A stretch of 60,764 nt of DNA, the filler included, from Hausera hauseri (taxonomy: Eukaryota), in assembly GCA_046269625.1 (NCBI GenBank). It is 11 parts of 11 records of this genome, joined end to end, with 100 filler letters (N's around TTAATTAATTAA, not from the genome) between each part and the next. Parts side by side here need not be neighbours in the genome. Positions count along the whole stretch, not along the records: positions 17,976 to 22,069 come from JBJURY010765984.1; 10 more parts are not named here. One strand, 5' to 3'. Below are positions 2,372-37,799 of the stretch, piece after piece. The notes beneath the pieces were generated by a model. It was not told the origin of the DNA. It did not search any database and saw only the letters and a list, made by a program, of their open reading frames with translations. The position numbers were made by a program, and so were the translations under genes. The stretch's first letter is position 1; every line of letters begins with the position of its first letter.

Positions 2372-2553
2372 TTACTTTTCTTTGCCCTCGATTTCACCAT
2401 TATTGAATTTGTTGAACCAATTTCTACACGTTCTTTCCTTTATTGTGTTTTCTCCCAGAACTTCGTTAATTTTTATCGTAGTCCATATGGCATTCAAAAT
2501 TATGTTTCCAAAAAGTACATCAATTTACGTAGATCTTCTTTATGAAACTCCAT
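2372..2553 (-). pseudogene. Mariner transposase N-terminal HTH remnant
   Basis: Frameshifted translation MEFHKEDLRKLMYF/LNAIWTTIKINEVLGENTIKERTCRNWFNKFNNGE resembles the mariner first HTH (INxxxGxxTxxERTxxxWFxKFxxG). Confidence 0.7.
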
Positions 2554-5893: not shown

Positions 5894-6370
5894 GATGTTG
5901 CCTTTTGTCCATTGGGGAAATTTGAACTTAGTATCCGAGTTGAATATTTTGAATGGGAGGATTTCTCGATTTCTTTGTTTTCCGTATTTCAATACATTCG
6001 GTATTTTGGTGACGTCTTCTATCCTGTCCATTGAACAATCTAGATGGGCTATCACTTTGTCATAAAATGAATATGACATGTTTCCTTCGATTGTTCTCAG
6101 TCTTTTTAGGCTTTTCGGTGCATCTTCCTTCTTATTTCTTGGAATACTGTCTGGTAATTTGACAATATCTTTACCTCTGAATCTTGGGGCTGAATTTGTT
6201 GCTTTGTTGCTTCCGAATTCCGGAGCATGCTGATATAAGTTTTTTGACATGTTTCTTTTTTCATCTTGCTGAGGTGGAATCTTGCTTCTATATTCTTTTA
6301 ATTCTAATCCGATTGGCCAGCTAATAAATTTTCTAACATTTCGAATTATCTGATCCTCATTGGCTGCCAA
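5894..6370 (-). CDS. Truncated 3' accessory ORF of copy A, weakly similar to the N-terminus of 19738-21243
   Basis: LAANEDQIIRNVRKF vs LSVQDGAEIVQRVKSF, in the same position after the membrane protein; runs into the linker. Confidence 0.45.
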
Positions 6371-6639
6371 TTTATAAATTATATACTATAATATGATTCG
6401 CCCAAACATTATGCTCGTTATTAGTATGTAACTCTTTGTGTTCTCGTTAAAGAAGCTAAGAGTCTTTATTAATTAATTCCCCTTTGACTAGTTTTACAAC
6501 TAAAATAGGGACAAAACAAAATATCGTGTGTGATACTTCATTTCTATCCACTTCATTAATTAACTTTGGGTCTTTAATTGTTTGTTTTCCCATTTCTTTT
6601 TCTTCCTCAGTCTCATTTATTTGTAAGCACTGATGACCT

Positions 6640-8050
6640 CCTTAGACAATAAAATAGTGAGAGTCCTTCATTAATCTCTTCCCGCACTTGGGTTTTCTGC
6701 TTAGTGCAACAAGCATCATAAGGACAATACGGACACTTGTTATCAATATAAACATGCACCAATATTGTAAGATGTATGTTTCAGTAGTCCAGGTCGAAGC
6801 TGTAGTTAATTTTCATTTTTCATCGTCATCATTGTATCTTATGTAGCGATATTGATCTATTGCTGGTTGTGTTTTTATGACTACAATTTTAGAGTTATCC
6901 GAGGTCTCTATCCTCACCAGATAATTGGTGTCTGGCGTTAGTTTTTCACACAAATTTCGCTTATGTGCTTCATATATGATGCTAACTTTATCATGTGAGC
7001 CCGTGCAAGTTATCAAGAGGTTTTGTTCGTTAATTGTGTTTTGCAATATTATCTCAATACGGTCTGTGTACGGCGTTAATTTAAATTTGATAGGGAATTC
7101 TTTCATCCATTTTCCATAAAATACGTGTTTGTGTAATTTTTTCAACGTATACGGCTGCTGATCTTGTATTTTATGCCCGTTTTTTGATTTGGACTGAAAT
7201 TGCGATTTATCTCGATCGCCCCTTCCCTTAATGATAAGTGTAGTCCATAATTTTGGCGCTATCATTATTTTCACAGATCGTGGAGAAATTTTGCGCTGCT
7301 TGGGGTAAGCCGGAATGGGTATATTCAGTTTAACGGAAAAAGATTAGCAATACGGTGAGAGTGCACTCTAATGGATTGTCTATTTTCCAGCGTTTGGTAT
7401 GCATCCAAACAAATTCTGTACCAGATGTATAGATAGAGTGTACAACATAAACGAGTGTCATTTCTCTTAAGATAACAATAATGTGGTTTTAGTATGGATG
7501 TACAGATTGGGTCGAGCCATATGCTGATTTCCAATTCATACGGTAATAGCTGTGAAGTGCGGAAATTCACGCAAGGAGATTGTCTTGTAAGATCGATACT
7601 GGAAATCTCAAGGAATTGAGTAATAAAAGGGTTATGCGAAAATACATCGGAAGTTTCCAATATGTTCATCTCTCGGTAAGTAGGAACGTGAAGAATCATA
7701 TTTGGCTCCGAAAGAATGGTATTGGTATTGTTAACTTTCAATGCTACGTAATACGTGTAAGTCTGAACATAATTGACGGAGCAAAATGTTTTATTATGCA
7801 TGGCAAGAATTGTACAGACAGAGGAAACATTATGTTTTGATATAAGGACAAAATCAACCGTGTGATGTCTCATTATAGGTAGGTGAGTTCGAAGGCAAAT
7901 ACTGGGTTTATGTGCATCTATACTGATAATCGTAGTTAGTTCAATCAATTCAGCCTGCAGCGTAATCGTGATATTTCGGTTAATGTCAGCGATCGTAATA
8001 GGTGTTAAGAGAGTGAGGGAAAGGAGGATGAAAGTACCCAAGTATTTATT
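6640..8050 (-). pseudogene. Post-integrase type I membrane protein (signal peptide, two Cys-containing beta repeats, FN3-like domain, TM), copy A
   Basis: In frame with integrase: YLGTFILLSLTLLTPITIA; HYCYLKRNDTRLCCTL; LTPDTNYLVRI; hydrophobic WCMFILITSVRIVLMMLVALSRK near 6700-6770. Confidence 0.65.
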
Positions 8051-8169
8051 AAAAGTGGAGTGAACGGGGCAATATTCTGAGGTGCTCATCGGGTGAATTT
8101 TGAGCAATGCCGCTATTTTGGGTTCTTCCGTTTTGGGTATTTCTAGCTCTGTTTCGTAGATGAAATCGT

Positions 8170-9433
8170 TGTATGAAGTAGGTGCTCGGGTTACTCGTTG
8201 AACAGACACAACCTTGTATTTATTGGGCCCTTTCTGAATAAAGAGTGTCTGTGGGCGTACATCGACAACTTTGTACGGTCCTTGACCTGTACGTGTTAAT
8301 TTTAACGATTTGCCTTTCTTTACCACGGGGTAGTGAATCATGACGTAATCCCCAATTTTATAAGTATGTAGTCGTGCCTTTTTGTTAAATTGCTTTTTAT
8401 ATCCGGCTCTATAGTTTTGTTCAAACTCTTGCTTCTTTTGGAAAATATTCGAGTCGTTTGAGCAAATTCTGGTATTGTTCATCCATATGATCACCGGTTA
8501 ACAAGGTTGATTTTAATAATTCCGTATCTAATTGTAGTAAAGGTAATCGTCCGAACATTAACTCAAAAGGTAAATGATTGGTACTTTTGGTAGGTGTAGT
8601 ATTGATTACAAAGGCCGTGGTTTTCAGACGATTGTGCCAATCTTTTTCATTATGCGCTACATTTGTAGAAAGAATACGCTGAATAGTACGATTAATCCTT
8701 TCGATCATACCGTTACATTGAGGATGGTATGATGTCGTCAATAAATGTTTGCATTGGAATATTTTTGATAAATTTTCAAAGAATTCGCTAATGAAATAAG
8801 GTGCACGATCAATTAACAACTGTTTCGGGGTGCCTAGTACGGCAATGATTTTATAAAAAAAGGTTTCAGCGACTGTACTACTGTTCATGTTTTTTAATGG
8901 TACCAGTACAACGTAGCGAGAGAAATAGTTAACAAGTGACAGTATGTATTTGTATCCTGAGTCCGAAATCGGGAATGGCTCAGAGATGTCCATTGCGCAC
9001 ACTTCCATTGGCCTACGAGCTTCAGGTAAGCATCCTACAAACGGTTTGATACAATGTCCTCTATCTTTCCCATTCTTACCTATTCTTCAATATGTTTATT
9101 CATTTGAGGCCAATAATATTTAGCAGTTATACGCTTCAACGTCTTACTTAAAGACGGATGGCCAGCTAAGTGTGAATCATGTTCTTGAAGCATGATGGCT
9201 TTGATGGCCGGTGAAGGCACCACAAACAGTTTTCGTTCTCCGACTCCGAGTCGTAAAATGCCATCTTGAATTACTAAGTTGGCTCGGTTCTTTTTATAAA
9301 ACTTTTGAATGTGGTTTGATGCCGAGTCAACTATTTGTCCATTGATTAATTGTTTGATTTGAACAATAAAGGGATCTTGGTTTTGTAGAGTCTCGATATT
9401 TCGCACTTGGATTTGGCGCTGTTCTTGTAGCAT
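8170..9433 (-). pseudogene. Gypsy-type integrase (copy A)
   Basis: EHDSHLAGH..YYWPQM; AMDI..YILSLVNYFSRY; YHPQCNGMIER; PFELMFGR; GPYKVV. Confidence 0.92.
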
Positions 9434-9479
9434 GCTATATTTACTTTCAAATGTTTATCGCTCTCATTGTCTATGGATT

Positions 9480-10385
9480 TAAAAGCTTCGGCTACTATTC
9501 CTTCTTATGGCATTCTTGAAAGAGCATCGATGTCCTTGTTTTTTTGCCGGGACGATATCGATACTCGAAATCATAATTCAAGAGTTCCAACTTCCATCTT
9601 TGGAGTCGACTTGATACATGTCTATTGTCTGAGCGTAGGATAATAGTGCCTTATGGTCAGTAAATATTATAACCTTATGACCGTAGACATAATATTTGTA
9701 ATGTCGCAGTCCGTCACGGCTTGCTAATAGTTCTAATTCAGTAGTTGAGTATTTCCGCTCTGCATTATTCAAGCTACGTCCACCGTAGGCAATTACATAT
9801 TCGGTTGTTTCTTCTGGATTTTGTTTAGCTAATATAAAACTAATGGCTTTAATGCTAGCATCGGTTTTTAAAATGAATGGTAGTGAAAAATCTGGGTACC
9901 TCAATATTGGTGCTGACACCATTCGTTTTTTAATTTCATAGAATGCGTTTTGGTTCTCTTCGGTCCATTCCCATTTTTGGTCTTTCCGTAATAATATATA
10001 CTGAGGTTGATTAATTTCTGCAAAGTCGGGAATGAAGGTAGCATGAAATTCTCCCAATCCTAACAATGCTTTCATTTCATGCACATTGGTTGGAGGGGAT
10101 ATTGCAGTATTTTAGTTACTAACTCAGGGCTAGTTGATATACCTTTATTGGAAACGACAAATCCCAGGTATCTAACCTCCTTCTTACACCATTCACATTT
10201 CTTGGGTTTAATTTCAATTTAGCAAGTCTGATTCGGTCGAATACTTACTTCAATTCCGCTAAATGGGCAGATCATGTCTGGGACGCATTAAGGATATCGT
10301 CTATGTACGATAATCCTCGCACGCCTTTTAGTACTAGACGAATGAACTCTTGGAAGAAAGTGGGTGTCGTCTTTATGCCAAATGG
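9480..10385 (-). pseudogene. RT C-terminal half (N-terminal half deleted) and RNase H (copy A)
   Basis: VPFGIKTTPTFFQ, SYIDDIL, KCEW..KEVRYLG, FILKTDAS, VIAYGGRSLNNAERKYSTTELELL, FTDHKAL. Confidence 0.9.
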
Positions 10386-10699
10386 AACATTAAGTGTGTC
10401 TTCAACATTATTATATTCCGCTGTTGATGTGGTCGTAACTTTGTTGTCGTATTTCTCTTGGCGTGTAGTCTCCAGGGCTTGTCCAATTTGCGTTTTAGTG
10501 AATATCGTGACACATCTTGGATTGGGATGTAGAACTTCTACGGGAATGGTTCCTCCAATTACTTTAACGCAATAATGTGGTTTCGGTACGAATTCGATCA
10601 CACTGTTGTCTGGGAATATCGTTCTGGCGTGTATAACCATTCTAGAGGTGGGTGGTATTTTCTCAACATGTCTGTTTTGTTGTAATTAGGGGGTTTATC

Positions 10700-11045
10700 A
10701 TCATTATTTGGGCAAATTGATCCCAATTGTAGGTTTAAGTGTACACATTCTAATTTTCGCAACACGTTCATACCCAAAATGCATCGCGGATCCAAGATAA
10801 CCATTACATCAAAAGTTATTTTGACTCTGTCCGCAAATCCATGGTTCACATTTCCAGTATCCATAAGGTATACTGCATTGGTGGAAGGCCGAAGTAGTAC
10901 CAGGCGAGCCTTTAGTAGCCAATTTTATTTGAGATTGTAAGTCTTCCGGAATTGCATGTTTTGCTATTAATGCAACGTTAGCTCCAGTGTCAACCATAGC
11001 ATTTAGGTCGAAACTATCAAAGTAAACTGTGGGGTGAGGTCAATT
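10700..11045 (-). pseudogene. Retropepsin aspartic protease (copy A)
   Basis: AMVDTGANVALI and downstream CILGMNVL. Confidence 0.85.
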
Positions 11046-11699
11046 ATCCCGTATCAGCTCGAGAAACGTTAATACTTCGTTATGATTATCTATATGTGGT
11101 TTCATCAAGCTGTATCTAGCTGAACAATATCGGGTAGTGCCACTTGATAATATAACCGGTAAACTTTCCAAAATTAAGTATTGTTTTCCACTTCTTTCAC
11201 TCCCTCTTTGAGTTCAGTCAGGTTTGGGTAGCAACTTACACGTTGTAATGTTGTGTTTTGCTTACTAACGTATTCTAAGGTCGTTACATGGGGTTATCTA
11301 TGTACTTGATCTTTCATTAATCGGTTTGTCTGGTGATAAGGTAAAGGTGGCAATATACCTAACTTAGGTGATGTAGGTAATGTTACACGGTTGTTTTCCA
11401 TGTTTCGTGTTATAATGGATTGACGTATCTCTTCCTGAGAGTATTTTGGTAAATTACACAGTTTTATATACTCCTCCATTTTTCCATACGAGTCCTTTAT
11501 GTCTGTTAATATTGGTAATTTACAAATGAACACTGTTCTATTCTCATATGGCGCAGCAAGTGATTTGGGTCTATTTTTCTCCTTTGATTTCATAAACCTG
11601 AATTTCCATTTCGTATCTTTTGTAATCCTTGTGGTATGATAGTATCCAGGAGCATTCTTATCATCGGAACTATACGGGGTGTCCCTTGAAAGTTGCTTC

Positions 11700-13079
11700 T
11701 TCGATTTATAATCGACATGTTTTCTATTTTACCTCACCATTGTTTCTCATGGTAAGCTTTAATGAATTTACCAAATGTGGAAAATGGAGCATTTATTATG
11801 CTTAGAGATACTCCTGTTAAGTTGTAGATCTCATAGGCGTTTAATACAAAATTGATACAGATATTCAAGGTCTGTATAATGAAGTATATGGCCAGAAACC
11901 CACAGGCTACTTGGTCAAATCTCAGGAATCCGCCACACATATTATACCACAAATTTGAAACGATTTTAGTATAGGCGTCAGGTGTCTACAACCGGTCCCA
12001 TTTTACTTCTCCGGCTGTGTCGTCGATTACTCAGTGTATTTTGCGATTTACTATTCGTTCTCTCCGTCGAGGATATGCTAAAGACTTCACAAATGAGTCC
12101 ATTTCTTTTTTGCTTTATAATTCGGATTTGGACACGTCCGTAAACATATTGATTTCAATTGCATGTTTCAAATTCGCCATGGTCAATTTCTTCGGTCTTT
12201 CTTTAACTCTTTCACGGTCCGGTAATCTAACCCAAAGATCCTGATTATCGTACTTTATAAATGGTTTATTCAGTTCTGAACAATTTTGGATTTCGGTGGG
12301 TATTGTATGTGGCGCTAGAAGTACTCTGGTAATCAGTTGAACATATCGGATTTCTTCATTATACCTAACAGGTATCTCAGAGTAACATGGAGTACGCCTA
12401 ATCAAGAGTAGGTCTATTCTTTCACATTTGTATGTATATAGCACTTCTCCTAGGACTCTGCCCCGAATTCCTTCGACGAAAGGGAGGGTTATTGTGATCA
12501 TTTCTGGGTTAGATGAGTATATGGCCAAACGGTTTGTCAAAGTTTCAAAATTCATTCTGAAAAATTTTGAATGGTCTAAGAGTATATTTCGTCAATTGCT
12601 TTGTGAGTTAGATAAAACAAAAAATCATCAAGGTGTGCGATATAATCGGCAATATTCATTGACTGGGCTTTGTTAATGGGAGGATTATCCGCACATTTGA
12701 TCTCTCTTTTCGATATAAAATAATTATCGTAATTAGTATTGTACACTTGTTGTCCGCATTTTGTAATCGCGTCTTGTTGTATAAATTTGACTCCTCCTTT
12801 AATATCCTTAGATATCACAATTTTAGGAGTTTTTACTTTAGGAATAACTTAAATATTGGTATGCTCGAAATTAGTCTTATAGTGACGGGCATAAATTTTT
12901 CCTGTGGTTACAATAAATTCTCCTTTTCTGATTTGTACAAATGTACAATCATGCCTTGTGGGGGGGTGTCCACACTATTGTAAATATTCTAGTATGACAA
13001 TGTCCAGTTTGCAACTTACAAAAAAATGCGTCTACCACTGTGTTTGTACTAATCCTTAATTTCGTCCTCGTACTGGTCA
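11700..13079 (-). pseudogene. Chuvirus/gB-like fusion glycoprotein, C-terminal part (copy A)
   Basis: GRVLGEVLYTYKCE, CYSEIPVRY..RYVQLITRVL and TM FLAIYFIIQTLNICINFVLNAYEIY; collinear with 58062-59240. Confidence 0.8.
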
Positions 13080-13179: not shown

Positions 13180-16100
13180 ACAGTTGCGGATACCTGCAAA
13201 TTCGGAATCACCGCAATCAATTTAGTCGAAAAGAAATTTGGACTGACCCAGATCCGAACACCTGCATCTTCGAAATCAATGCAATGAGTTTAGTCGAAAA
13301 AAATATTGGAATGACCCAGTTCGGACACCTGCATATTTTGACTCACCAAAATGAGCTGCTTCGAAAAAAATTTTGGACTTACCCGGTTCAGGACACCTGC
13401 AAATTCGCACTCATCGCAATGAATTGAGTCGGAAAAATTTTGGACTGACCCAGTTCGGGATACTGGCATATTAGGATTCGCCAAAATGAATTGAGACGAA
13501 AAAAGATTTGGACTAACCCAGTTCCAAACGCCTGCATATTCGGACTTACTGCAATGGGTTGAGTCGAAGAAAATTTTGACTGACCCAATTCGGGACACCT
13601 GCAAATTCGGACTCACTGCAATTAATTGAGTCGAGAAATTTTGGACTGGCTCAGTTCGGGATACTTGCATATTGGGATTCACCGCATTGATTTGAGTCGA
13701 AGAAGATTTTGGACTGACGCAGTTTAGAGCAGCTGATAATTAGGACTTACTGCATTTAGTATAGAAAGAAAATATTTTGGAATGTCCAAATTCCGGGTAC
13801 CTGCTTATTTGGATTCACTGCAATGAGTTTAGTAAAAAAATTTTTTGCCATGATCCAGGTCCGGAAACGTGCATATTCGGAGTCACTGCAAACAGTTTAG
13901 TCGAAAAACGTTTTGGAATGACCCAGTTCCGGACACGTGCGTATTCGGATTCAACGCAATGAGTTGAGTCTGAAAAAGTATAGGAGTGACCCAGTTCGGA
14001 CACCTGCATATTTTGACTCTCCAAAATGAGTTGAGTCGAAAAAAATTTTGGACTGACCCAGTTCAGGACACCTGCATATTTTGACTCACCAAAATGTGAT
14101 AAGTCGAAAGAAAATTTGGACTGACCCAGTTCCGGACACCTGCATATTCGGATTTACCACAATTAATTGAGTCGGAAAAATTTTGGTATAGCCCAGTTCG
14201 GGATACTTGCATACTAGGATTCACCATAATGAATTGAGACGAAAAATTTATGGACTAACCCTGTTCCGCACACCTGCATATTTTGATTCACCAAAATGAG
14301 TTGAGTCGAAAAAAATTTTGGGCGGACCCACTTCCGGATAACTGCAAATTAGGATTCACCGTAATTAATTTAATCGGAAAAATTTTGGGCAGAGCAAGTT
14401 CGGGATACTTGCATATTAGGATTCACCGCAGTGAGTTGAGTCGGAAAAAAATATTTGACAGAACCTGTTCCGCACACCTGCATATTTGGACTCATTGCAG
14501 TGAGTTTAATCGCAATAAATTTGGGTCTGACCCAGTTGGGCACATACAAATTCAGACTCACCGCAATGAGTTGAGTCGAAAAAACTTTCTGACTGACCCT
14601 GGTCCTTACGCCTGTATATTTTGACTCAATGAAATTAGTTCAGTCTAAAAAAATTGATGAATGACCCAGTTTCGGACACCTGCATATTCGTACTCGCCGA
14701 AGTATATTAAGTCGAAAACATTTTTGACTGACCCAGTTTCGGACACCTGCATATTTTGACTCACCAAAATGAGTTGAGTCGAAAAAAAATTTGGACAGAC
14801 CCACTTCCGGATAACTGCAAATTAGGATTCACCGCAATTAATTGAGTCGGAAAAATTTTGGACAGACACAGTTCGGTATACTTGTATATTGGGATTCACC
14901 GCAATGAATTCAGTGGAAAAGAAATTTGGAATGACCCTGCTCCGCGCACCTGCCTACTGGGACTCACTGCAATGAGCTTAGTCGAAAAACGTTTTGGACT
15001 GACCCAGTTACGGACACCTGCAAATTCGGAATCACCGAAATGAGTTGAGTCGAAAAAAATTTTGGAATGATCCAGTACCAGACACCTGCAAATTCGGCAT
15101 CACCGCAATGAATTTAGTCGAAAAAAATTTTGGACTGACCCAGTTCCGGCACTTCAATATTCGGACTCACTGCTATAGGGTTAGTCGAAAAAATTTTTTG
15201 AATAAATCAGTTCCGGACACCTGAATATTCGGAATCAATGCAATGACTTTAGTCGAAAAAAAATTTCGGACTGACCATGTTTCGGACACCCGCAATTTAG
15301 GACTCACCTCATTGAGTTGAGTAAAAAAAAATTTTGGACTGACAAAGTTGCGGACACCTGCATATTAGGACTCATTGCAATGAGTTTAGTCAAAAAGAAA
15401 TTTGGACTGACACAGTTCCGGACACCTGCATATTGGTAATCAATGCAAAGACATTAGTCGAAAAAAATTTTGGAATGACTCAGTTCCGGAAACTGCATAC
15501 TCGGACTCACTGCTATCAGTTTAGTCGAAAAAAGTTTTTGAATAATCCAGTTCCGGACACCTGCATATTCGGAATCAATGCAATGACTTTACTCGAAAAA
15601 AATTTTGGACTGACACAGTTGCGGATACCTGCAAATTCGGAATCACCGCAATCAATTTAGTCGAAAAGAAATTTGGACTGACCCAGATCCGGACACCTGC
15701 ATCTTCGGAATCAATGCAATGAGTTTAGTCGAAAAAAATTTTGGAATGACCCAGTTCCGCCACTTGAATATTTGGACTCACTGCAATGAGTTGAGTCGAA
15801 AAAATTTTGGCTTGATCCAGTTGCGGACACCTGCATATTCGGACTCACCGCAATGGGTTTAATCAAAAAAATTTCGGATTGACCCTGTTCCGGACACCCG
15901 CAATTTAGGACTCTCTGCATTGAGTTGAGTAGGAAATATTTTTGACTGACACAGTTCCTGACAACTGCATAATCGAACTCACTGCAAAGAGTTTAGTCGA
16001 AAAGAAATTTTGAATAAACCAGTTACGGACACGTGCATATTCGGACTCACTGCAATGGGTTGAGTCGAAAAGAGTTTTGAATGACCCAGTTCCGGACACA

Positions 16101-17875
16101 TGCATATTCGGACTTAACGCAGTGAGTTTAATCGAAATAAATTTTGGACTGACCGAGTTCCGCACACCTGCATATTCGGACTCACTGCAATGAGTTTAGT
16201 CGAAAAATTTTTGAATAAACCAATTCCGGACACGTGCATATTCGGATTCGACGAAGTGAGATTAGTCGAAAAAAATTTTGGACCGAACCAGTTACGGACA
16301 ACTGCATATTCGGACTCACTGCAATGAGTTTAGTCGAAAACAAATTTGGACTGAGCCAGTTCCGGACACTTGCATATTTGTACTCTTTGCAATGAGTTCA
16401 GTCGAAAAAAATTTTTCACCGACTCAGTTCCAGACACCTCGATATCCGACTCCCCTCATTAAGTTGAGTCGAAGAAAATTTTCGACTGACGCAGTTACGG
16501 ACACCTGCACATTTGTGCTCACCGCAATGAGTTTAGTCGAAACAAATTTTGGAGTGACCCAGTTCTGGACACCTGCATATTCGGGCTCACTGATACGAGT
16601 TTAGTCGAAAAAATATTTTGAATAAACCAGTTGGGGAGACGTGCATGATCGGATTCTACCAAATGAGTTGAAAAAAAAATTTGTACAGACGCGGTTCCGC
16701 ACACCTGCATATTCAAACTCACTGCAATGTGTTGACTCAAAAAAAATTTTGAACGACCCAGTACCGGACACCTGCATATTCGGACTCACCGCAGTGAATT
16801 TAAACGAAATAAAGTTTGGACTGACACAGTTCCGGACACCTGTAAATTCGGAATCACCGCAATACATTTAAACAAAAAAAATTTTTGTACTGAGCCAGTT
16901 CCGGACACCTGCATATTCGGAAACAATGCAAGACTTTAGTCGATAAAAATATTGGAATGACTCATTTCCGGCAACTGCGTATTCGGACTCACTGCAATGA
17001 GTTTAGTCGAAAAATTTTTTGAATAAACCAGTACCAGACACGTGCATAATCGTGTTCGACGAAATGAGAATAGTCGAAAAAGATTTTGAACCGACTCAGT
17101 TCCAGACACCTCCATATCCGACTCCCCTCAATGACTTGAGTCGAAAAAATTTTCGACTGACGCAGTTACGGACACCTTCACATTTGTGCTCACCGCAATG
17201 AGTTTAATCGAAACAAATTTAGGAGTGACTCAGTTGTGGACACCTGCAAATTCGGAATCACCGCAATTGGTTTAATCGGAAAAAATTTTTGACTAGACCA
17301 CTTCACGACACCTCCAAATTCGGCCCTTCCGAAAGGTGTTGAGTCGGAAAAAATGTTCGACTGATTCAGTTGCGGACACCTGCATATTCGGACTCACCGC
17401 AATAAGTTCAGCATGAAAAAATTTTGGACTGATCCAGTTGCGGACACCCGCAATGTAGGACTCATTGCATTGACTTGAGTAGGAAAATATTTTGGACTGA
17501 CACAGTTTCGGACACCTGCATATTCGGACTCACTGCTATGAGTTTAGTCGATAAAAATTTTTGAATAAACCAGTTCCGGACACGTGCATATTTGGATTCG
17601 ACGAAATGAGTTGAGTCGAAAATAATTTTGCACAGTCCCGGTTCCGCACACCTGCATATTCGGACTCACTGATACGAGTTTAGTCGAAGAAAAATTTTGA
17701 ATAAACCAGTTGGGGAGACGTGCATGATCGGATTCTACCAAATGAGTTGAAAAAAAAGAAATTTGTACAGACGCGGTTCCGCTCACCTGCATATTCGGAC
17801 TCACTGCAATGTGTTGACTCAAAAAAAATTTTGAACGACCCAGTACCGGACACCTGCATATTCGGACTCACCGCA
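13180..17875. repeat. Satellite DNA, ~68-69 bp monomer, roughly 68 copies, fills the whole contig
   Basis: Consensus approx. GAGTTGAGTCGAAAAAAATTTTGGACTGACCCAGTTCCGGACACCTGCATATTCGGACTCACTGCAAT, head to tail. Confidence 0.97.
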
Positions 17876-17975: not shown

Positions 17976-18073
17976 AAGTAGGTCAACAGCAGAGATGATT
18001 GGAGACACCAGGAATCGCGAGAGGTGGAGATCCATGACATCCTGTGCTTCGCCGCACGGCACCTGATGATGAT
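17976..18073 (+). mobile_element. 3' end of an RTE-like non-LTR retrotransposon
   Basis: AEMIGDTRNRERWRSMTSCASPHGT* followed by a (TGA)n tail. Confidence 0.7.
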
Positions 18074-18345
18074 TATTTCTGAACACACGAGCCGTGTTTC
18101 CAACACACTGAATGTCGCCCGTGTGACTTCCTAGCCTTAAGCTTGGTTTGATTGTGCATTCAGCTTGCTTCAGCATTTAGTCTTCGTTTATTTCTAACGT
18201 AGTCATTATATTTTGTTTATTCAGTAACATCTAGTTTTGAATTACAGAAAAAGGAGAATCAAGCGTCAACCTGGAGGTCCGGTGTAGAAAGAGCGGAAGA
18301 CAAGAGATAGGTCAGAAAATGGTTTACACATAAATTGATGAACAG

Positions 18346-18460
18346 AAAAGACCAAGAAGAACATGGATAGACAACGTGAAGAAGACTCCCCAAGTGCTAA
18401 AGATCAACAATTTGGAGAAAAAGACCAAAGACAGAGAAATGTGGAGGCGCATCGTTCAAG
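18346..18460 (+). mobile_element. Second RTE-like LINE C-terminal remnant
   Basis: KRPRRTWIDNVKK...KTKDREMWRRIV matches the RTE GRP..W...DR..WR motif. Confidence 0.6.
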
Positions 18461-18856
18461 TGTACGCTATCGAAGAAACAAGGATTACATCTTTCCAAAC
18501 ATTTCTTTTAAATAAAATTACTTCTCACCAACTACACATTAACTTTTTTCCCTACACTCATCTAACCTGATACTCTTTCTCTCTCCCTCTTCGCCTAGCA
18601 AAGTACTCTCTTCGACTATTAACCCTCCCCCGGCCTCAGAACATAAATATACTATTTCAGCAAACCAGATTTTTTTGTAACATTTCGTACAAAATTCATG
18701 AAGAACGGACCTTGTGTAACAACTGAACCAGATTCCCCAATAACTAGGTATTGAACAATTAAATATACAATATTTAATAAAACAGATACGATAGAGTGTA
18801 GACCTTTCTATCAAAATCCTCATCTATGTTGTTTCATATCCTTTGATAAGGAATAT

Positions 18857-19741
18857 ATGATATGGTATTGGACAGGATTGAAAACGAATGGTGGCTGGAA
18901 ATGGTCGGATGGATTAATAGGTCCAGAAGTAATAGTGAGATCACCGAGAATAACAACTGCTACTACAGCAACGATGACTTCTATCATGGACTTAACGACA
19001 CAGAAACTGACTAAGGATATGAACGTTAATAGGAAACTGGATATAACCATACAGTCGATGCCACATTCTCTCATTATTACGGCATCGAACTTGAAAAATA
19101 CAAACATAAAATTTGAGTGTTTTCTTTATGACAGAATGATTAGTGAAGGAATTATAACCCCAGATGAGCCTACATCAGCCTGTATGTTCCTAAAGGCTAA
19201 TACAAATTATAAAGTTGTTATAACCGAACTAGATGAAGAAGGACAGAAACTACAGACAATCTATCGTATGGGAAGAACGTTAAACCAACCTATTATAACG
19301 ACCGTGAATACCATAAAAACGGTAACTGCACAAAATTATATAAATAATTCCAATATATACCTACGGATAATAATCATATTATGTGTATTCTTAGTATTAA
19401 TAGCTGTGTTATTACCCTTAATAATTTACTATTCCAGAATAAGATACAGGAGGCGCAAGACCCAAAATATTATACAACAGCTAAAATTATTAAGGGACGA
19501 TTCCCAAAATGATACGGGTAATGAAATAGATGCGCTTTTCCAAGCTGAGAAGCTACCAGATTCTAAACGGCCATCTCAACCGTTAACAGATGTTACACTA
19601 TGTATGTGTACATGTACAAAAGATGAGGCTGAAAAATTTTTGGCGACCTACCAAAATAAAACCAATTATAAAACACCCAGGCTGCAAAGCTTTGTGCAAC
19701 CTATCATAGAATTTTTCGAAACTTTTCATGGCTATTATTGA
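18857..19741 (+). CDS. Type I membrane protein C-terminal part: C-type-lectin-like end, Thr-rich stalk, FN3-like domain, TM, cytoplasmic tail
   Basis: YWTGL..GGWKWSDG; TTATTAT; LKANTNYKVVI; IIIILCVFLVLIAVLLPLIIYY followed by RIRYRRRK; 5' part disrupted. Confidence 0.7.
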   Translation: MIWYWTGLKTNGGWKWSDGLIGPEVIVRSPRITTATTATMTSIMDLTTQKLTKDMNVNRKLDITIQSMPHSLIITASNLKNTNIKFECFLYDRMISEGIITPDEPTSACMFLKANTNYKVVITELDEEGQKLQTIYRMGRTLNQPIITTVNTIKTVTAQNYINNSNIYLRIIIILCVFLVLIAVLLPLIIYYSRIRYRRRKTQNIIQQLKLLRDDSQNDTGNEIDALFQAEKLPDSKRPSQPLTDVTLCMCTCTKDEAEKFLATYQNKTNYKTPRLQSFVQPIIEFFETFHGYY

Positions 19742-21243
19742 TATATTTTCTTTCAGTCCAAGACGGTGCCGAAATCGTCCAACGAGTCAAATCTTTTTAT
19801 TATAACGTCGCTTCTAATCTCAATTCCACCCAACATAAAGACTATATATATTACGGGAAAGCATCCCTAATACCTAATAATATCAAAGGTCATTTGGTCA
19901 CACAGAGAGCAGGATTGATCATTAAATTACCTAATGCAGCAACCAGATTGTCAGATTTAGTAGACACATCCGCGAAAACAACCTTCGTTTATATATCAGT
20001 CATCAGAGCAAGCCTACAATTGAAAAGTAGAAGTCATCAGACCGATATAACAGATCAACTCAATGTAACTCCCTTCTCGACAATTCGTTTAGATCATCGT
20101 CTCTATAAGAATGCCAACATAACATTACGAACCTTTGGAGGACCTAATCCCATTCTATACATTGAGGTTACCAGGAGGGAGAAAATCTCTCATCCAGAAT
20201 ACGATATACCAATTTTTAATACACCTCTTCCAAACAAATCCGAATTAGAAAAAGGATGTTCCTTCTCTAGAATTTCTCCGGTTCCTAGAAGCCAAGTTGT
20301 TATTGTATCCACAAATGTTGCATATTTGATCAAGGACAATAGTTCTCAAGCTACACTTATAGAAATTACCATAATGGATTTAGAGAAAAAAATCCTCCTC
20401 GATCAGCTTATTACCACACGAGGACGCGTAGATAATTACAATACGCAAATAACCGGAATACGGGAAGTAGACTTAATCGGCCAAGCCGACCAATACCAAA
20501 TTTGGCCTATGATTAGATATCATTTAGTAGGAAAAATGATTGTATCAATGGATATATTTAATATCAATTCACAAATTGCCCTCTTCAATACGGATCGTAT
20601 AATGGGTATCCGAGATTTGTATTACCATGATGTAATAAATCCCAAGAAAACATTAACCCTAAAACAAGTTTTCTTAAAATTCAATAATATTATATATCCA
20701 ACACGGACAAAGGATAAAGCATTGGTCATTCTTAATATCTATAACAGTCTAAAAGAATATCAACATCAAGATGTGGAGACAAATCTGATACCAACAGCAC
20801 ACAACATTTCAAATGAACACTCCACTTCCCTTACTTTATCTGATGACAAGATCCATTCATTTACTCCAGAATTAATGGATATAACCGATTCCTTCAATAC
20901 AACAGAACTACAGATCAATACATCAGCTATTGTCGATCTGATTGAAGAATCGCCGATCGCTCGACCAGGACCTTCAACAAAAGCCCAACCTGACCTTTCA
21001 GCAACTGTTATACCTGATAAACAGATAGTTGTTGATTCAACAAAGAAAAAAAGAAAAATGCCCAAAGAAGATACCATTACTTTAAAACTGAAATTCAAAC
21101 AGAAAGGCTTATGGCGACAATACGAATCGTCTAATTATCGTGTAGAAAACGAAACCTTAGAAACCTACCCAGCAATGCTGAGGACAGCATTGTCTGAGGA
21201 GGGAAATATTAGGGAATCTGATATCAAATGTGATCAAAAGTGA
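19738..21243 (+). CDS. 501-aa protein with REXO4/ISG20-like DEDDh exonuclease domain (~20287-20745) lacking catalytic residues
   Basis: LLDQLI..RVDNYNTQITGIREVDL, LVGKMIVS and IRD align by eye to REX4-type exonucleases; the DxE position reads STN; intact ORF (TTG start listed). Confidence 0.7.
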   Translation: MIYFLSVQDGAEIVQRVKSFYYNVASNLNSTQHKDYIYYGKASLIPNNIKGHLVTQRAGLIIKLPNAATRLSDLVDTSAKTTFVYISVIRASLQLKSRSHQTDITDQLNVTPFSTIRLDHRLYKNANITLRTFGGPNPILYIEVTRREKISHPEYDIPIFNTPLPNKSELEKGCSFSRISPVPRSQVVIVSTNVAYLIKDNSSQATLIEITIMDLEKKILLDQLITTRGRVDNYNTQITGIREVDLIGQADQYQIWPMIRYHLVGKMIVSMDIFNINSQIALFNTDRIMGIRDLYYHDVINPKKTLTLKQVFLKFNNIIYPTRTKDKALVILNIYNSLKEYQHQDVETNLIPTAHNISNEHSTSLTLSDDKIHSFTPELMDITDSFNTTELQINTSAIVDLIEESPIARPGPSTKAQPDLSATVIPDKQIVVDSTKKKRKMPKEDTITLKLKFKQKGLWRQYESSNYRVENETLETYPAMLRTALSEEGNIRESDIKCDQK

Positions 21244-24200
21244 TCAACAGATCGAGACTGTGATTAAATAAATTTACTTGCAAATTTGATCTGGTCAATG
21301 AGACCATTATAAACTAGTAATGATTTATCTATGATTTATTTTAAAGCATTGTTGATTTATTCGTGATCTTTGTTGATTTATTTGTGATCTTTTTACATTC
21401 TTTTGGAATTTCACATATTATATGTAAATTTATTCCGTCTGTGTTTATATGAAAAAGGAGTATAAATACTTAAATTCTTAGTACCCAAGAACAGAAAAAT
21501 TCTTATGTATGCCTACACCTCATGTGAGTTTTATTATCTTATTTTCTTTAAAGTTTGTAATTATTTTTGATTTCTCATTGTAACTATTGTGTTATTATTT
21601 ATTAAAGTTTATTGATATAACATTACTTTTTGTTTTATAAGATTTATATAAATTCGTCTAAATAATATATTTTGATAATAAGGGTTAATTAATCTTATAA
21701 AACAGGGGCCCGTTTATTCTTACGGTCATAACTAACCGTAGAGCTAACAAACTTTATAAAATCAGGGGACGACACCAGTGTTCCTCCTGGTGATCGAATT
21801 CACATACATATATAAATAATTTCAACAAGCCGACCCCACAGGCGGCTTTTAAGATTGAATAAAGTAATCGAGCTCGAGAAAAATAATACCTTGAGCTGTT
21901 CGTACTAAAGTAATTAAGTATAAGTTTGAGGCTCCAGAACCCAAACTTTTCCAACCAAATTTAACTTCTTTTCGTGTTACTCAAACTTATCACTTTATTG
22001 GAAAATGCGAGAGATACTTCGACTTTATAAAGATGTCGGAGGCGGACCGAGAAACTGCGATCCTGTGCCNNNNNNNNNNNNNNNNNNNNNNNNNNNNNNN
22101 NNNNNNNNNNNNNTTAATTAATTAANNNNNNNNNNNNNNNNNNNNNNNNNNNNNNNNNNNNNNNNNNNNTTGAGTATAATGAAGAAAGAAATCAACGTCT
22201 TCATGGTGTCCATGGATATTGAAATTGTCACCTTTCAAATAATGGATCGTTTAGTTGACTGTCTTATTCAGTGTGAAATTGAGGATGGTATAACCAGTAG
22301 TGATATGATATGTAGCAACAGTTTGACATGCTACAACAATCGATTTTGGCAATTACTACCCAACTAAATAATCTTAATGAGCCTCGACAAAGTGAAACCA
22401 GATGTTCACGGGAGCGAAGCACTTCAATGCACTCTTCTCGGTCCATGTCACCTGGCGGAAGTATGACTTGTTTCTACCACACACGTTTTCGAAAGGAAGC
22501 AAGGAAATGTTTCTTGGGCTGTCGATTCTTTAGTGAGGGATACGACGTAAATAACCATATTTGTATATACCACAACAAATATCAATCAAAGGCCAGGTCA
22601 TGTGTGCCTGGTTGTAGACATTACAATAAAAATCTCCTAGCTTTTCTTCCTCTTCTTTCTTTCCTCCAAATCCTACAAAAAACTCATAATTCCGCCAGAT
22701 TGTATGGCACCTTTTGGCGCAGGCAACATCGTTCAATCTTCTGGCCGTTTTAACACCGCCTCTGCAGTCTTTCTGTTGAAGGCTGCACTTTTATGCAGTG
22801 ATGCTTCACACATCGACTTCCTTATAGACTCAGGAGCTGCCTTTTCACTCCTTCTGTTGTCTTTCACCCCTACATCCACTATAACTTTCTGTCCTCCACT
22901 TTTCACCGCCAGTGGACAACCGCTGTACGTTGCAGAAACCACGGAATTGACCTTCACATTCGCCAACTTTCCCGATAAGTTTGTCTGGAAGTTCCACGTG
23001 GCCAACATTAAATCTCCCATAATAGGCTCAGATTTTCTTGCCGCACTTGATTTATTGGTAGATTGAAAATACAGCTGTCTTAGCAAAAACTCGATTTCAA
23101 CTTCAAACATGTGTCTCGCAGATAATCTAGCAAGCAATTCATTGCACTCATCTGGAAACGTGTTGAACGTTTTGTCATCTATTAAAAAAACTTCCGATAA
23201 AGTCGGTAAACCTTCAATTATGAACGACAATCCTATATTTATTCTGAAACAAAAATCCAAATTAGATGTCGACAGCAGCGATGTTAGTTGCCTCTCTTCA
23301 GTCACTGCAGCTGTTCTTTTTAATGATGCGCCTCAATCATTCTTATCTTTAGACTCCGATCTTAGATCATATATCACAACATCATGCTTTCGAATAGTTA
23401 AAAGAGACATCAACTTCAAGCTATCACCCTCAACTTATCATCATATTGTAAAGGAGCATCAGAGGACTATCAAACAGAGGGTCAGATCTTTGTCGTCACG
23501 CAGAAATAAAGCTGTGGAGCAGGAGTTTAATGAACTAGAAATGTCTGGCATTGTTCGGAGATCGAATTCTCCATGGGCCTCTCCTCTTCATGTAGTGGTA
23601 AAGAAAGATGGAACTTATAGGCCATGTGGCGACTATCGATAATTAAACAATCTGACTATTACAGATGCCTATCCACTACCACTCATTCAGGATATTCTTC
23701 ATAGCCTCAGCAACATCAATACCTATTATACTATTGATCTGCACAAGGCCTATTATTAAATCCCTGTTGCGCCTAATAACATTCCAAAAACTGCTGTCAT
23801 CACACCGTTTGCTTTTTATGAATACATCTTCATGCCTTTTGGCCTACGTAGTGCATCTTAGACCTTTCAGCGCCACATTGACACCGTTATTTCTGGACTT
23901 GATTTTGCTCACCAATACATGGATGACATATTAGTCGTTTCAATCTCCATAAAACAACATCATGAGCATCTTGGAATTATTTTCCACAGATTGCATCAAA
24001 GTAACCTGCAAATTAATTTCTACAAATGCAATTTCTTCCAGAAACGCGTAAACTTCCTAGGCCACATAATTACTCCCGAAGGGCATTCGCCCCAGCTTGA
24101 TCGCATACAACAATTAAAAAATGAAACGTAGCCAACTACAACTACCGATATGCGGAGTTTTCTAGGTACATTGCATTTCGTACACAAATACGTGCCTCAT

Positions 24201-28178: not shown

Positions 28179-28882
28179 CGTCGAACAAAGTGTCGGTTTG
28201 ACTGAAACTGGCAAAATGTGGATTCGTCTGTAAAGATCACCCGGTCCCAATCCTGAATGGTCCAGTTACGATAACGATTGCAAAATGCAATCCGATCACG
28301 AATATTTTTTGGTATTAATGCTGGTCGGACTGTAGGTTTAAACGCTTTTAAGCCAAACTGATAGAGAAGACGACGACATACTGTACTAGAGCATGGTGCA
28401 GCATTTTCTGTTGGCAGATTAGATCTAATTTCAGATGAGGACATGTTCGGATTCTTTGTGCCTAATCGATAAATCAATCTGTCAATTTCAGGTGTTGTGA
28501 CTTTGGGATGACCTGACATTCTTGAACAATATTCACCTGTTTTCACAATTCGCTTAAGTGTTTTGCAAGCAGTATCAACTGAGACATGTAACCTTTGTGC
28601 AATTTCATCCTGGGCATTCCAACATCAGCAAGAGCTTTTATTTGAGCTCTTTTGTCTGTAGATAACTGCATATTCCGAACCATTTCCACAAAAAATGCAA
28701 ATTGATTTTGAAATTCCATAGATATTTTATGAAATTCCAAATTTATTTTTAAAATATGACGTCATTCTTGTTCATATGTAATTACCTATGTCCCACATTT
28801 AAGTATAAAATGTGCAAAATACCAATAACTGACTATAATTAATGAAAAATTTAAGTGTTTCCAAACTTTTTCACAGTAGTTG
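28179..28882 (-). mobile_element. Tc1-like transposon 5' half (terminal repeat ~28854-28882; frameshifted transposase from 28683)
   Basis: SGHPKVTT, STVCRRL, WTIQDWDRVIFTDESTF; upstream CTACTGTGAAAAAGTTTGGAAACACT resembles a Tc1 TIR. Confidence 0.88.
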
Positions 28883-30280: not shown

Positions 30281-30811
30281 GTGTCAGCTCTACCGCACAA
30301 TTCCCCAAAAGTGTCCAGATTGACTCGGGATCAACATTTCCCCACCTATCTCGCAATTCTGAGCATTTCAGGTTTCGTGGTCGGAGACCCCCAGGGACAG
30401 AAGAAAGTCGGACAATGGACTTTGAACCAAGACCAATTGGTCAAGCCGGGCAAGGCGAACAAAAGTCAACAGCGCCGCAAAGCCGAAAAATGTAACCCGG
30501 CGGCACAGGAGGCGCAAGAAGAAAAACGGGCAATGTGCAACCGGCAACGCAACACATGTTATTGGTATACGGAAATTTTGTACAGAGGTAAAATTGATGT
30601 TGACAAGTCGAATGGACACGGTTTCGTCGTCGTTCGACCAAGGGGACATGGGGAAAAACGGTTGGGAAAATTTCCGTCGGGTAAAATGTTTTATGTTCAA
30701 GTCTGCCGGTTACTGAAATGGGTCCCGTATATTGCCCATAAGTTGGAGAAAATTTTATATAACCGCCTCACGATCAGACCAATGGATCTGGATGAAAAAC
30801 GCATTTTGTAA
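30281..30811 (+). pseudogene. Possible Polinton minor capsid (penton-like) remnant
   Basis: GC-richer segment; pieces LLVY/TEI..VVVRPRGHGE..PVYCP..LTIRPMDLDEKRI loosely fit the Polinton penton C-terminus; close to an adenain-like gene. Confidence 0.3.
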
Positions 30812-30911
30812 AACGTCAAAATTGTCATTTTCGTTCTGTGTTTTGTAAATGCGTTCGTTTTGTAAAAATCTCGCGTGAATTTTATTTTTCTACGACGACG
30901 ACGCTTAAAAT

Positions 30912-31064
30912 CGCAATGAGTTGAGTCGGAAAAAATTTTGGACTGACCCAGTTCGGAACACCTGCATATTCGGACTCACCGCAACGAGTTGAGGCAGAAA
31001 AATTTTTGGACTGACCCAGTTCGGGACACCTGCATATTCGGACTCACCACAATGAGTTGAATCG
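30912..31064. repeat. About 2.3 copies of the 68-bp satellite monomer
   Basis: Monomer starts at 30917, 30985 and 31053; same consensus as 13180-17875. Confidence 0.95.
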
Positions 31065-31150
31065 GGGAATTTCAAACACCCATAAACAAACCAAAAGCAT
31101 TAACCTAACAGCAACAAAATAATATATTTCACAAAATAGAATTAATTTAA

Positions 31151-31480: not shown

Positions 31481-32510
31481 CCGGGGGGAGGCAAACGACA
31501 AAATCAATTTTTCACATGTACCAATCGACAGTGCACATGGAGCACTATCGATTGGGGGTGTACTAGGCGACGGTGGCATTAGGCTCCGCTGCTAGGCACA
31601 TTTTTGCACATTTCACAAATCGATAGCTGCACATTGCGCAATTGATTGAATTGATCGGAGAAAAGTGCTAATCGATAGTGCACATTAGTTCACATTGATT
31701 AATGACACGCAGGTGCACTGCACATGTGCAAGTGTGCAAAAATTAATAATATAGGATTTCCGATATTTCCAATATTGATGATTAGGACATGTAACCGAGT
31801 GGGATAGTCTGGAAACACGATGCAGTATATGAATGTGCAGTTATAATTTAAATTTATCAAGCCGATTTCGAATAATATCGATCCAAATTGAAACTGAGGG
31901 AGAACCCACATAGGTTTTTTAAGCCCTAAGAAAGCAAAATTCAATATTATAATTAGCGGGGACAGATGGGAAATCGACTATGGCGATCTCGAATATCGAG
32001 TCGGATATTCGAAATTCGAAAATTTTTTGGCTCGAATATCAAATATCGAACTATTCGAAAAATCTAACAGAGGAAATCGATTCTTCATATTCGAAAACCC
32101 CCTTATACATAAAAATTGTTCCATGAAAATGTACTATACAGGTACAAAATCAATATTTCGAATTGAGCAAAATGTTCATTTGAAGTCCAGTGAAGTGGAA
32201 ATCAATAAATCTATAAGCGGGGCGGGATAGGAAGATATATATGCCGAATCGGAATATGACATCAGGTATTCGAATTCGAGATTACAAGTCGAATACTTAG
32301 TTAATTAAACTCGAAAACTTGGTCAAGCATGCATTATTCAAAGAATCTAATGATGTCATTCGATTCCCCATGGTCGAAAACCTTAAATTTGGCGCCGCCA
32401 CGTATTTAATTGATGAATTAAAACAAAAGTGCATTAAAATCAATTAATAAGCGGAGCAGTTCATGGTAATATGGCAACATATTTCATTATTTCCAAAATC
32501 AATTTAACGA

Positions 32511-34292
32511 ATGGTGAGTATTTAATTGTGCTCCTAAAAATACTTAGTTGATTTTAGATGGTCAAATTCTACAGCGAATGTTTGACTCAAATCCATGAGC
32601 CGGAAAATTGCCATAATATTACGAATAAGTACTTTGCCCATATATACAACCGGGTTCAGTATTATATATGCTCTACATGTGAGATAGTGTACCAAGCCAA
32701 TTATGAAGACTTTTAAAATGTCCATAAACAGCACTTTATTTTATTCACCAAGTCGAAAACACGAATATTTAGTACCAATATGCTATTAATGACTTTCGTG
32801 CCAAAGGAAAACCGAGGGTGAGTTCATATGTGTATTGCACATGTGTAATACACAACCCTCAAAATTGCCGCAATATCATGAGGAGCTATTATGGACACAA
32901 ATTCAATAGGACCATCTATTATATCTGCTCTGGATGCGAGGCTGTATGTGATATAGAATACATACAGTTTTATGATGATCATNNNNNNNNNNGACTTACT
33001 TCGCATCAGAGTCAAAGAAGATCATCTTTAATGAACATAAGTCAGTTGCACAGCATGCAGTACCACAGCCTCCAGTACAACCGGATGCAGGGTTAAAACG
33101 CCCATCGGGCTCATCAGGCGTACTGGCTCCATCAAAGAGTCAAAGACAGCAGCCACTTAATGCAGCAGCACTAAAGAGGAAATGCCGCAAATATGTCATT
33201 GATGCAACTGGTCAAACAACCATCAAGGAGTTTTTGGGGTACATAGCGGAAGAAACAATAGGGATTCTCCAGGACAACATAGGTGAGCTCAAGGCCCTTA
33301 AGACTAATATGAAACTTGAAACCACATACGTCAATATTGATGGTGAAGAGTTTAAAACGGTCTTCAAGACTAGATATAGACCCATTTTTGAACTCATCAA
33401 TATAGTAGAATGGCTGGATAAAGCGCATGCAACGCTGATCCGTAAAGCCGATGAGTGCCAGAGTAAGAAGAACGAATGGAATTTGGCAACCATCAAGAGA
33501 TTGCTTGTATATATGCACAGATTCCCGCCCATGCGGGGTAGTTTATATATTGTGTTCCCTGATTAGATTTCTAATAAAAATCATGTGTCAATGTCAATAA
33601 TAACGACAACATGTGTTTCATATGTGCCATTCTATCAAAACTCGTACAGGATCAATACAATACTTCACGAGTTTGGCAATATAACGATTTGCAGCACAAC
33701 TATGACTTTTAATGTATCATATTCCCTCCATCCTTAGATGAAATTAAGACGTTCAATCGAATCAACAATATATCAACCAACATCTTTAGATTGAATGAGG
33801 AAGATAAAATCTATCCATTGCAGATATATGATAATGAATTGAAAGATCATGTGGATCTATTCCTACCAGACGATGGAGAAAAGAAACATTATGTTTGGAT
33901 CAAGAACTTTGAGCGTCTAGTCATATCTCAAATTACGAAACACACAACAATAATCGAAATATGCAAACGATGCTTTAACTATTTCAGTGGTGATGCAGCA
34001 GTGGACAAGCTTGCAGAGCACAAAATGTACTACAACAACAATTACTGCATCAGACCAGTATTTCCGAAGGAAGATTACATTAAATTCATGAAGTTAGATA
34101 AGAAGCTCAAGGTCTCAATAGTTATTTATTGCGACTTTGAAGCTATTCTCAGGCCAGTTCTTACATACACTCCCAGTCATCAACATAGCAGTGCAACGGC
34201 ATACCAATATCATGAAATCTTATCATATTGCATATATTCCAAAGGACTGGATGGTGAACCATTTCTAATCAGAGGTCCAAGTGCAGCAGCAC
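32511..34292 (+). mobile_element. Polinton-type pPolB locus, 5' part (Cys/His mini-ORF plus pPolB N-terminus to ExoI)
   Basis: MRGSLYI, NDNMCFICAIL, KHYVWIKNFERL, ICKRCFNYF, VIYCDFEAIL; collinear with 43826-41515. Confidence 0.88.
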
Positions 34293-35047
34293 NNNNNNNN
34301 NNNNNNNNNNNNNNNNNNNNNNNNNNNNNNNNNNNNTTAATTAATTAANNNNNNNNNNNNNNNNNNNNNNNNNNNNNNNNNNNNNNNNNNNNGAAGAGAA
34401 AACAGAACAAGAGGAGAAACTTTATCCTAAGAAGTGGAAAATCAGACGTTCATGGAAAAACGCCGAATAATTAAAAAGAATGAGGACGAATTGTCTCAAC
34501 CCAGAGGTAGTACAACAAAATCTAGAGAAACTCAAAACTATAAGTGAACACGTGGATATTTCTGGCAAGGAACAACAGTTTGTAGAGAGATTATACAAGA
34601 AGATGAAACTATATAGTGAAGGAAAATTAAGTTAATCTATAGACTTAGATCAGCCTGAAGAAGTGGCAACAGAAACACTAGTTTAGTGGAAACGCGAATT
34701 AGAACGGTGGACTAAAACTAAGACAAAACTTCCGGAGACGTGGGATAAAACTACTCAAGAAATCGAAGCTAGAGTCAACCAAGCTTAGTCGCTACTAACT
34801 ACATTAGAAGCCAACCCAAAATTAAAAATAGTAACACGTAATTTAGAGCGCTTGATGAACGAAATTAGATTAGTCGAACGACTCTAGCGAAAACCGGTCA
34901 AGTAACGAGATTCAATCGACCTAGAGATTATAGGCATAGACTCGCTAGATATTCCATCTTTAATGGAAATGATGAAGATCGCTTCTACGGCATCAAAACA
35001 ATATACCAGTTTGGAGAATCGCATTAAAACTGAGGCCGAAAAAAAGG

Positions 35048-37700: not shown

Positions 37701-37799
37701 GAAATAAGACCAAACAAACGCTATAATTTGCGTTCGAGCAAAACAAAATCGGACTATACAAATAAAGAAAAGAAAAGGTCGTCGATAGTGACTAGACCA

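Follow-up and report, generated by a model that had tools for sequence, protein, structure and literature searches.

The window analysed here, a 60,764-nucleotide stretch of Hausera hauseri DNA (assembly GCA_046269625.1; AT-rich eukaryotic DNA in 11 pieces with 10 artificial 100-nt spacers between them), contains an open reading frame (ORF) that very likely encodes a dead nuclease belonging to an accessory gene family of Burro-like retroelements. Its sequence and structural model supported a DEDDh-fold protein of the ISG20/REX4 branch, a derivative of that branch rather than a member enzyme, because the ExoI, ExoII and ExoIII residues are all replaced. The ORF and its catalytic positions are as follows:

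19738–21243, plus strand: accessory ORF, 501 open codons, in a frame open from stop to stop from 19672.
20293–20778, plus strand: ISG20/ISG20L2-like DEDDh domain, catalytically dead by sequence (Atlas search, family profile, alignment columns and ISG20 structure match).
20308–20316, plus strand: ExoI D-x-E positions, here S-T-N (residues 191–193; by alignment).
20563–20565, plus strand: ExoII Asp position, here Ile276 (FNI, residues 274–276; by alignment).
20701–20718, plus strand: ExoIII H-x4-D positions, here Thr322 and Lys327 (by alignment).

The original prediction, made from the sequence alone, had recognised REX4/ISG20 scaffold motifs in this domain, and translation placed them where expected (NYNTQITGI at residues 233–241, LVGKMIV at 263–269 and IRD at 291–293). 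Searched alone against PDB sequences, the domain gave three matches, of which ISG20 (E 0.14) and SDN1 (E 0.2) were the top two and the only DEDDh entries; an Atlas search returned PF00929 on 26 of 30 matches (best 0.93, 175 of 256 features). Both results rest on the single sequence and are independent of any alignment. Pfam, PHROGs and NCBIfam searches of the ORF and its halves gave nothing above noise, and nuclear-receptor matches at E about 0.6 were dismissed as compositional. Word-index protein searches returned no match to the single protein or domain and only one known member to the alignment, and locus scans found no relative, either in metagenome and viral contigs with the window protein or in viral contigs with alignment A3. 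An exhaustive phmmer search yielded 25 relatives (E up to 0.001), which come from ENA, JGI/IMG and Logan assemblies, giving a family of 26 rows with the window member. The Pfam RNase_T cut-off was passed by 12 of the 25 relatives and by none of the 8 degenerate ones. The 26-row profile matched ISG20L2 (E 1.6e-26), ISG20 (2.8e-17) and SDN1 (1.8e-15). An alignment-based model (predicted local distance difference test, pLDDT, 87; predicted template modelling score, pTM, 0.84) superposed its C-terminal half on ISG20 with Z 17.5 and a root-mean-square deviation (rmsd) of 2.5 over 158 aligned residues, and Exuperantia was in the fold-match list (Z 10.6); a fold from the single sequence reached a pLDDT of 29 only. 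Family-profile search and structure prediction, the kinds of check proposed with the initial assignment, both pointed to an ISG20-type DEDDh fold.

The family alignment likewise bore out the earlier reading of ExoI as STN, of the ExoII Asp position as FNI and of the final H..D as gone. The five catalytic columns are occupied by S191, N193, I276, T322 and K327, none of the canonical residues being present after alignment. Asp326, one place before Lys327, aligns with a Glu of the family that is not a ligand. Lys327 itself shares a profile column with the catalytic Asp that was mutated in the ISG20L2 structure (entry title D327A). ISG20, for its part, is known to be inactivated at D94 (PMC6805002). 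All five residues were present in 15 of the 26 rows (ExoII counted as Asp or Glu, with Glu in 9 of the 15), and none of the canonical five in 8 full-length rows; the remaining three are cut before ExoIII and keep 0, 2 and 3 of 3 residues. Not one of the 23 complete rows was intermediate, an all-or-none pattern. The original prediction had proposed capture as a pseudo-nuclease. With 15 of the 23 rows long enough to be scored intact and catalysis apparently lost repeatedly, that proposal was abandoned. Dead rows keep P46 and N47 (8/8), R228, D251 and G290 (9/9), R292 (8/9) and Y335 (7/8), and the family has PR and QxD motifs of its own.

A second fold precedes the nuclease:

19750–20181, plus strand: AlkB-like double-stranded beta-helix domain without conserved HxD/E (model residues 4–147 against ALKBH6, and motif tally).

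On the model and the motif tally, the N-terminal half is an AlkB-like barrel without the iron-ligand motif, fused ahead of the nuclease. Close to the start of the barrel stands FY...IPNxLK, a motif of the family, here with its IPN at 19870. This half of the model matched ALKBH6 (Z 10.7, rmsd 3.3, 142 aligned), and also ALKBH7, Ofd2, OsALKBH1 and NMAD-1 (Z 9.1–9.9); six AlkB-family entries in all scored Z 9.1–10.7 over residues 1–148. Foldseek concurred on an AlkB-like barrel, with cupins, JmjC proteins and viral AlkB-bearing replicases also among its matches. A sequence-level search of the N-terminal half gave no AlkB match, and Atlas no usable one. AlkB dioxygenases are marked by HxD/E...H iron ligands and RxxxxxR. 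HxD/E was common to none of the 21 members, occurring in 5 of 21 rows at unshared places, and the distal strands, assigned by order rather than by residue-level superposition, carried no conserved His or Arg. One barrel His, replaced by Ser in the window copy, is frequent (12 of 13 intact rows, 5 of 8 dead ones).

By sequence, the dead form appears to have arisen at least three separate times. When the tree was built from the nuclease domain only and the catalytic columns were kept, the dead form required 2–4 changes. A tree of both domains with the catalytic columns dropped (21 rows, leaving out five without the N-terminal domain) required 4–6, and a single dead clade was rejected (approximately unbiased test, p-AU 0.00026). 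Leaving out also the three longest-branch dead rows (P0002, P0021 and P0024) gave an 18-row tree in which starred branches force 3 changes (p-AU 0.0006). As few changes were needed in 67 of 500 and 37 of 500 label shuffles, so the dead label is scattered rather than clustered. The changes were read as losses because ISG20L2-type enzymes are the evident source.

The domain is also present in many copies. In run X1, 217 contigs covered 20270–20770 (501 bases), 96 of them under 90% alike, and no indel reached a 15% share inside the domain; X1 possibly derives from the same sample as the window and so does not count as independent support. Of 40 listed sites 25 differed silently, where the observed mutation spectrum predicts a share of 29% (p 1.3e-5, ratio about 0.25), and the other two frames, taken as a control, gave 8/40 and 6/40. 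The codons of S191 and I276 showed silent differences only, among the listed rows. At least 17 listed differences were near-private to the window copy. The silent excess and the near-private differences together indicate that the lineage kept the dead domain while this copy ages as an insertion: selection has likely maintained the dead domain in the lineage, and the window copy itself is probably an old, silent insertion.

The family was tied to retroelements through its relatives. Burro/GYPSM1 is a giant planarian Ty3/gypsy element with a huge polyprotein, in which a Gag zinc knuckle, a ubiquitin-like domain and a mononegavirus-like fusion glycoprotein precede protease, reverse transcriptase (RT), RNase H and integrase, and with accessory ORFs (PMC6431247). 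An alignment of four intact members (A4) fetched three loci, L001, L002 and L003, whose accessory proteins have intact catalytic motifs; L002 is too short to tell its context. L001 and L003 each contain a single open polyprotein (3012 and 3207 codons, 5' open, the gag ends lying beyond the 10-kb flank) with fusion glycoprotein, protease, RT, RNase H and integrase. FN3-like units, a Thr-rich stalk and a membrane helix close the polyprotein, and the accessory family gene comes next, at 2 of 2 loci with upstream DNA. L001 and L003 also carry a lysine/glutamate-rich accessory ORF without Pfam match, and the L003 polyprotein has an extra FN3-like unit and membrane helix between protease-like domains (residues about 1390–1560). 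The cluster of P0025 comprises 24 near-identical intact members, many on contigs of 15.6–17 kb, possibly one recently active element in many samples. Three other pieces of the window hold decayed Burro-like elements (52647–60762 and 34393–38729 on the plus strand, 5894–13079 on the minus strand) with many stops and frameshifts. What they encode runs from a Gag zinc knuckle and a ubiquitin-like domain through a Monjiviricetes fusion glycoprotein to RNase H and integrase. As this is the layout of planarian Burro/GYPSM1, the host is probably a flatworm.

For the window copy the relevant features are:

17976–22069, no strand assigned: assembly piece with the accessory ORF, bounded by spacers, 4 kb, the ORF alone there.
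18755–19741, plus strand: upstream ORF of 328 codons, interrupted by an in-frame stop (18752–18754), weakly like the relatives' polyprotein tail.
5954–6079, minus strand: N-terminal motif of the accessory family in ORF 5894–6385, which is cut by the piece end.

Because the ORF is alone on its piece, nearness to pol within the window carries no meaning, and there is no physical linkage beyond the piece limits. Both ends of the piece are other very high-copy repeats (about 17978–18114 and 21993–22069). The piece ends at 17976, so that a polyprotein with fusion glycoprotein is not visible for this copy. With one element end covered, no pair of long terminal repeats (LTRs) or clear polypurine tract was seen in the piece, L001 or L003. 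The upstream ORF contains a C-x8-LCC motif, a Thr-rich stalk, an FN3-like unit (about 19034–19234) and a transmembrane helix (19370–19426), the latter two being part of the basis on which a link to the large element had been proposed. The unit and the helix are present, but the link they provide is weak: a profile of the four FN3-like units of L001 and L003 ranked the upstream ORF second of 387 at E 0.064 (1 of 1000 shuffles scored as high), and a post-integrase profile built from two window elements did not score it (rank 1805 of 2001). The C-x8-LCC motif, picked by eye, is common to the upstream ORF and two post-integrase ORFs; a looser pattern had 3 of its 5 window matches there and occurred in 0 of 2000 shuffles. 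RIFIN/TRP matches of the upstream ORF were dismissed as compositional. The similarity of the accessory N-terminus to 5894–6370, noted earlier as weak, proved real yet weak: the family profile without the window row placed ORF 5894–6385 second among the 1371 ORFs of the window (E 0.037, exceeded by 1 of 2000 shuffles), and hhalign gave E 0.002 with a probability of 14%. This ORF lies downstream of integrase on piece 5894–13079, which also encodes fusion glycoprotein and RNase H. Pairwise tests of the links to the upstream ORF and to 5894–6385 were not significant, both being recovered by profiles only. Placement as a 3' accessory gene of a large element stands for the family, through L001 and L003, whereas for the window copy the link is indirect.

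Two further features concern expression:

19746–19756, plus strand: splice-acceptor-like site (T-rich tract and CAG) where relatives start; ranked by pyrimidine count, it is fifth among the piece's 106 YAG sites.
20779–21240, plus strand: unconserved C-terminal tail, rich in T, S, E and K, with a KKKRK run (residues 436–440; sequence).

The ORF had been described as intact; its frame is indeed open, but the first in-frame ATG comes no earlier than 20374. The CAG ending at 19756 lies 39 codons ahead of the IPN motif, and the relatives' starts lie 21–91 residues ahead of it (2 of 19 values were set aside as pattern mis-hits). In L001 (9207 and 10001) and L003 (9959 and 11583), accessory start codons follow a YAG by 0–2 nt behind an AT-rich tract in 4 of 4 cases, which suggests a set of spliced subgenomic RNAs. 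We infer that such an RNA with a leader exon would account for both the acceptor-like site and the missing ATG. The AUG of a flatworm spliced leader was rejected as the source of the start, since it would be out of frame at the 19756 site. No slippery heptamer was found at the ORF junction, where small indels (19660–19717) differ among copies. The KKKRK run we take to be nuclear-signal-like.

The remaining pieces of the window provided observations of their own. Piece 1–5793 has an identical 77 bases at both ends, as expected for a circular or tandem 5716-base unit, and a 437-codon ORF (3703–5016, minus strand) without Pfam match. The whole of 13180–17875 is a diverged 68-base satellite, with a related patch near 30700–31100, and 31939–34292 and 41513–43826 are two copies of another repeat family on different pieces, 78–91% alike. 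ORF 39744–40235 (minus strand) presumably corresponds to a fragment of a protein-primed DNA polymerase, and 28179–28624 (minus strand) to a fragment of a Tc1/mariner transposase.

As to function, we tentatively favour the possibility that the dead two-domain protein binds RNA and thereby defends the RNA of its element. The analogy is with Maelstrom, a host protein that silences transposons and sets the precedent for a pseudo-DEDD fold (PMC4408791). An element ancestor would have acquired an ISG20L2/REX4-type nuclease and joined it to the end of an AlkB-like barrel that had already lost its metal site, the gene being expressed from a spliced subgenomic RNA. At least three lineages would then have dropped catalysis wholesale while keeping the fold and surface residues (IPNxLK, R228, D251, G290, R292, Y335), and the rigid two-domain unit might now bind, as Maelstrom does. 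Three or more apparently separate losses would favour a dead form that binds rather than cuts RNA, and a non-cutting RNA-end binder would shield element RNA from host 3'-5' decay.

Several observations weigh against this account or parts of it. The dead rows have longer end branches (median 2.04 vs. 0.86 for intact rows), which weaken the count of origins and make relaxed constraint possible. The silent excess comes from 40 listed sites of 79 variant ones, unpolarised and from the single run X1, and outside the domain the silent share of listed sites is lower (8/21 in the ORF, 5/12 upstream). Of the 8 dead rows, 5 have Glu in the ExoIII Asp column, and in the window copy Asp272 and Asp326 persist near the pocket. 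Net charge of the nuclease domain, from −9 to +12 over the 26 rows (+4 in the window row), does not tell dead rows from intact ones. Intact nucleases were part of the alignment from which the model was folded. The two relatives linked to pol have intact nucleases, no dead member having been seen to share a contig with pol, and the first ATG of L002 has no preceding YAG.

Instead of binding RNA, the dead protein might be a protein-binding decoy or scaffold that ties up the partners of a host nuclease or a silencing factor. We consider this rather unlikely. The residues kept in dead rows (IPNxLK, R228, D251, G290, Y335) could serve fold and interface, and Burro elements bear many host-meddling domains (PMC6431247); yet both folds derive from nucleic-acid enzymes, and the tail of the window member has no Cys-rich finger.

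A role as an inter-element weapon, blocking the intact nuclease of co-resident sisters through the same RNA ends or the enzyme itself, seems improbable. It would fit the all-or-none loss and the nesting of dead rows P0004 and P0022 among intact rows on starred branches, but presupposes dead and intact forms in one host. Equally doubtful to us is that the gene is a relic whose constraint has relaxed and which is being lost: the longer branches of the dead rows, the at least 17 near-private differences, the lack of an ATG and the varying indels at 19660–19717 would all be expected of it, whereas eight full-length dead rows remain open at about 20–30% identity, the domain shows a silent excess and no listed indel, and decay predicts intermediates, of which there were 0 among 23 complete rows.

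Continued cutting through a rearranged site is very unlikely. Asp272 and Asp326 do lie beside the pocket, and 5 of the 8 dead rows have Glu in the ExoIII column, but the dead rows share no acidic or His residue at any single pocket column, and 9 of 9 have Ser or Ala in place of the ExoI Asp. That this is an ordinary single-copy host gene, an alternative named in the original prediction and one which the absence of pol from the same assembly piece would allow, is hardly credible given the 217 contigs of one run on 501 bases (96 under 90% alike), the lack of introns and relatives that follow a retroelement polyprotein.

Each component has parallels in known systems. The layout of the Burro-like parts in L001, L003 and the three window pieces, the high copy number and the accessory ORFs after the polyprotein agree with Burro; the available text of the Burro review names no nuclease, AlkB or FN3-like module for it (PMC6431247), and the primary papers may describe them. 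Fold and scaffold motifs are shared with ISG20, ISG20L2, REX4 and SDN1, from which the accessory protein differs in its five catalytic replacements, the AlkB-like barrel in front and its carriage by a mobile element. The bdelloid LTR retrotransposons Juno and Vesta and the Terminons carry a DEDDy ORF3, also as a DEED variant (PMC5408684). They resemble the present family in having a DEDD nuclease as a 3' accessory ORF of LTR elements, and the Glu at ExoII in 9 of 15 intact rows is comparable; theirs is of the DEDDy/RNase D type and intact, whereas here it is of the DEDDh/ISG20 type, with an AlkB-like partner and repeated catalytic loss. Maelstrom, EXD1 and Exuperantia have a DEDD fold without catalytic residues and active relatives elsewhere. 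Unlike these host proteins, the accessory protein rides on an element and, by inspection, has no ECHC zinc motif of the Maelstrom kind; that it binds as they do would be by analogy. Orchid Ty3/gypsy elements encode an AlkB ORF that is an active N6-methyladenosine (m6A) demethylase (PMC9289625), so that an AlkB-type fold on a large gypsy element has a counterpart, as it has in viral AlkB domains; the present barrel differs in that HxD/E is conserved in 0 of 21 members and in being fused to a nuclease. In the literature searched, which did not extend to primary Burro papers, supplements or Repbase entries, no description of an AlkB–nuclease fusion in LTR elements was found, and the fusion is not mentioned in the available portions of PMC8532177, PMC13465017, PMC7968707, PMC6805002, PMC13238120 and PMC13524379.

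Nuclease and AlkB accessory genes were thus known before in LTR elements, separately and in active form; here both folds are fused, and the nuclease, intact in some lineages, is entirely dead in what appear to be three or more others. We can speculate, with considerable doubt, that this is a two-state RNA-end module, a dead AlkB barrel with an ISG20-type nuclease that was switched off in at least three lineages to become a shield or decoy. It would be an element-encoded pseudonuclease suppressor directed against host RNA surveillance or the live nuclease of rival elements, and a mirror image of host Maelstrom. According to a report cited in PMC13465017, one Burro-like element helps planarian regeneration. 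The finding names an unannotated accessory gene of Burro-like elements, and the intact and dead sisters constitute natural matched pairs for the change from enzyme to pseudoenzyme and for what the element gains by it.

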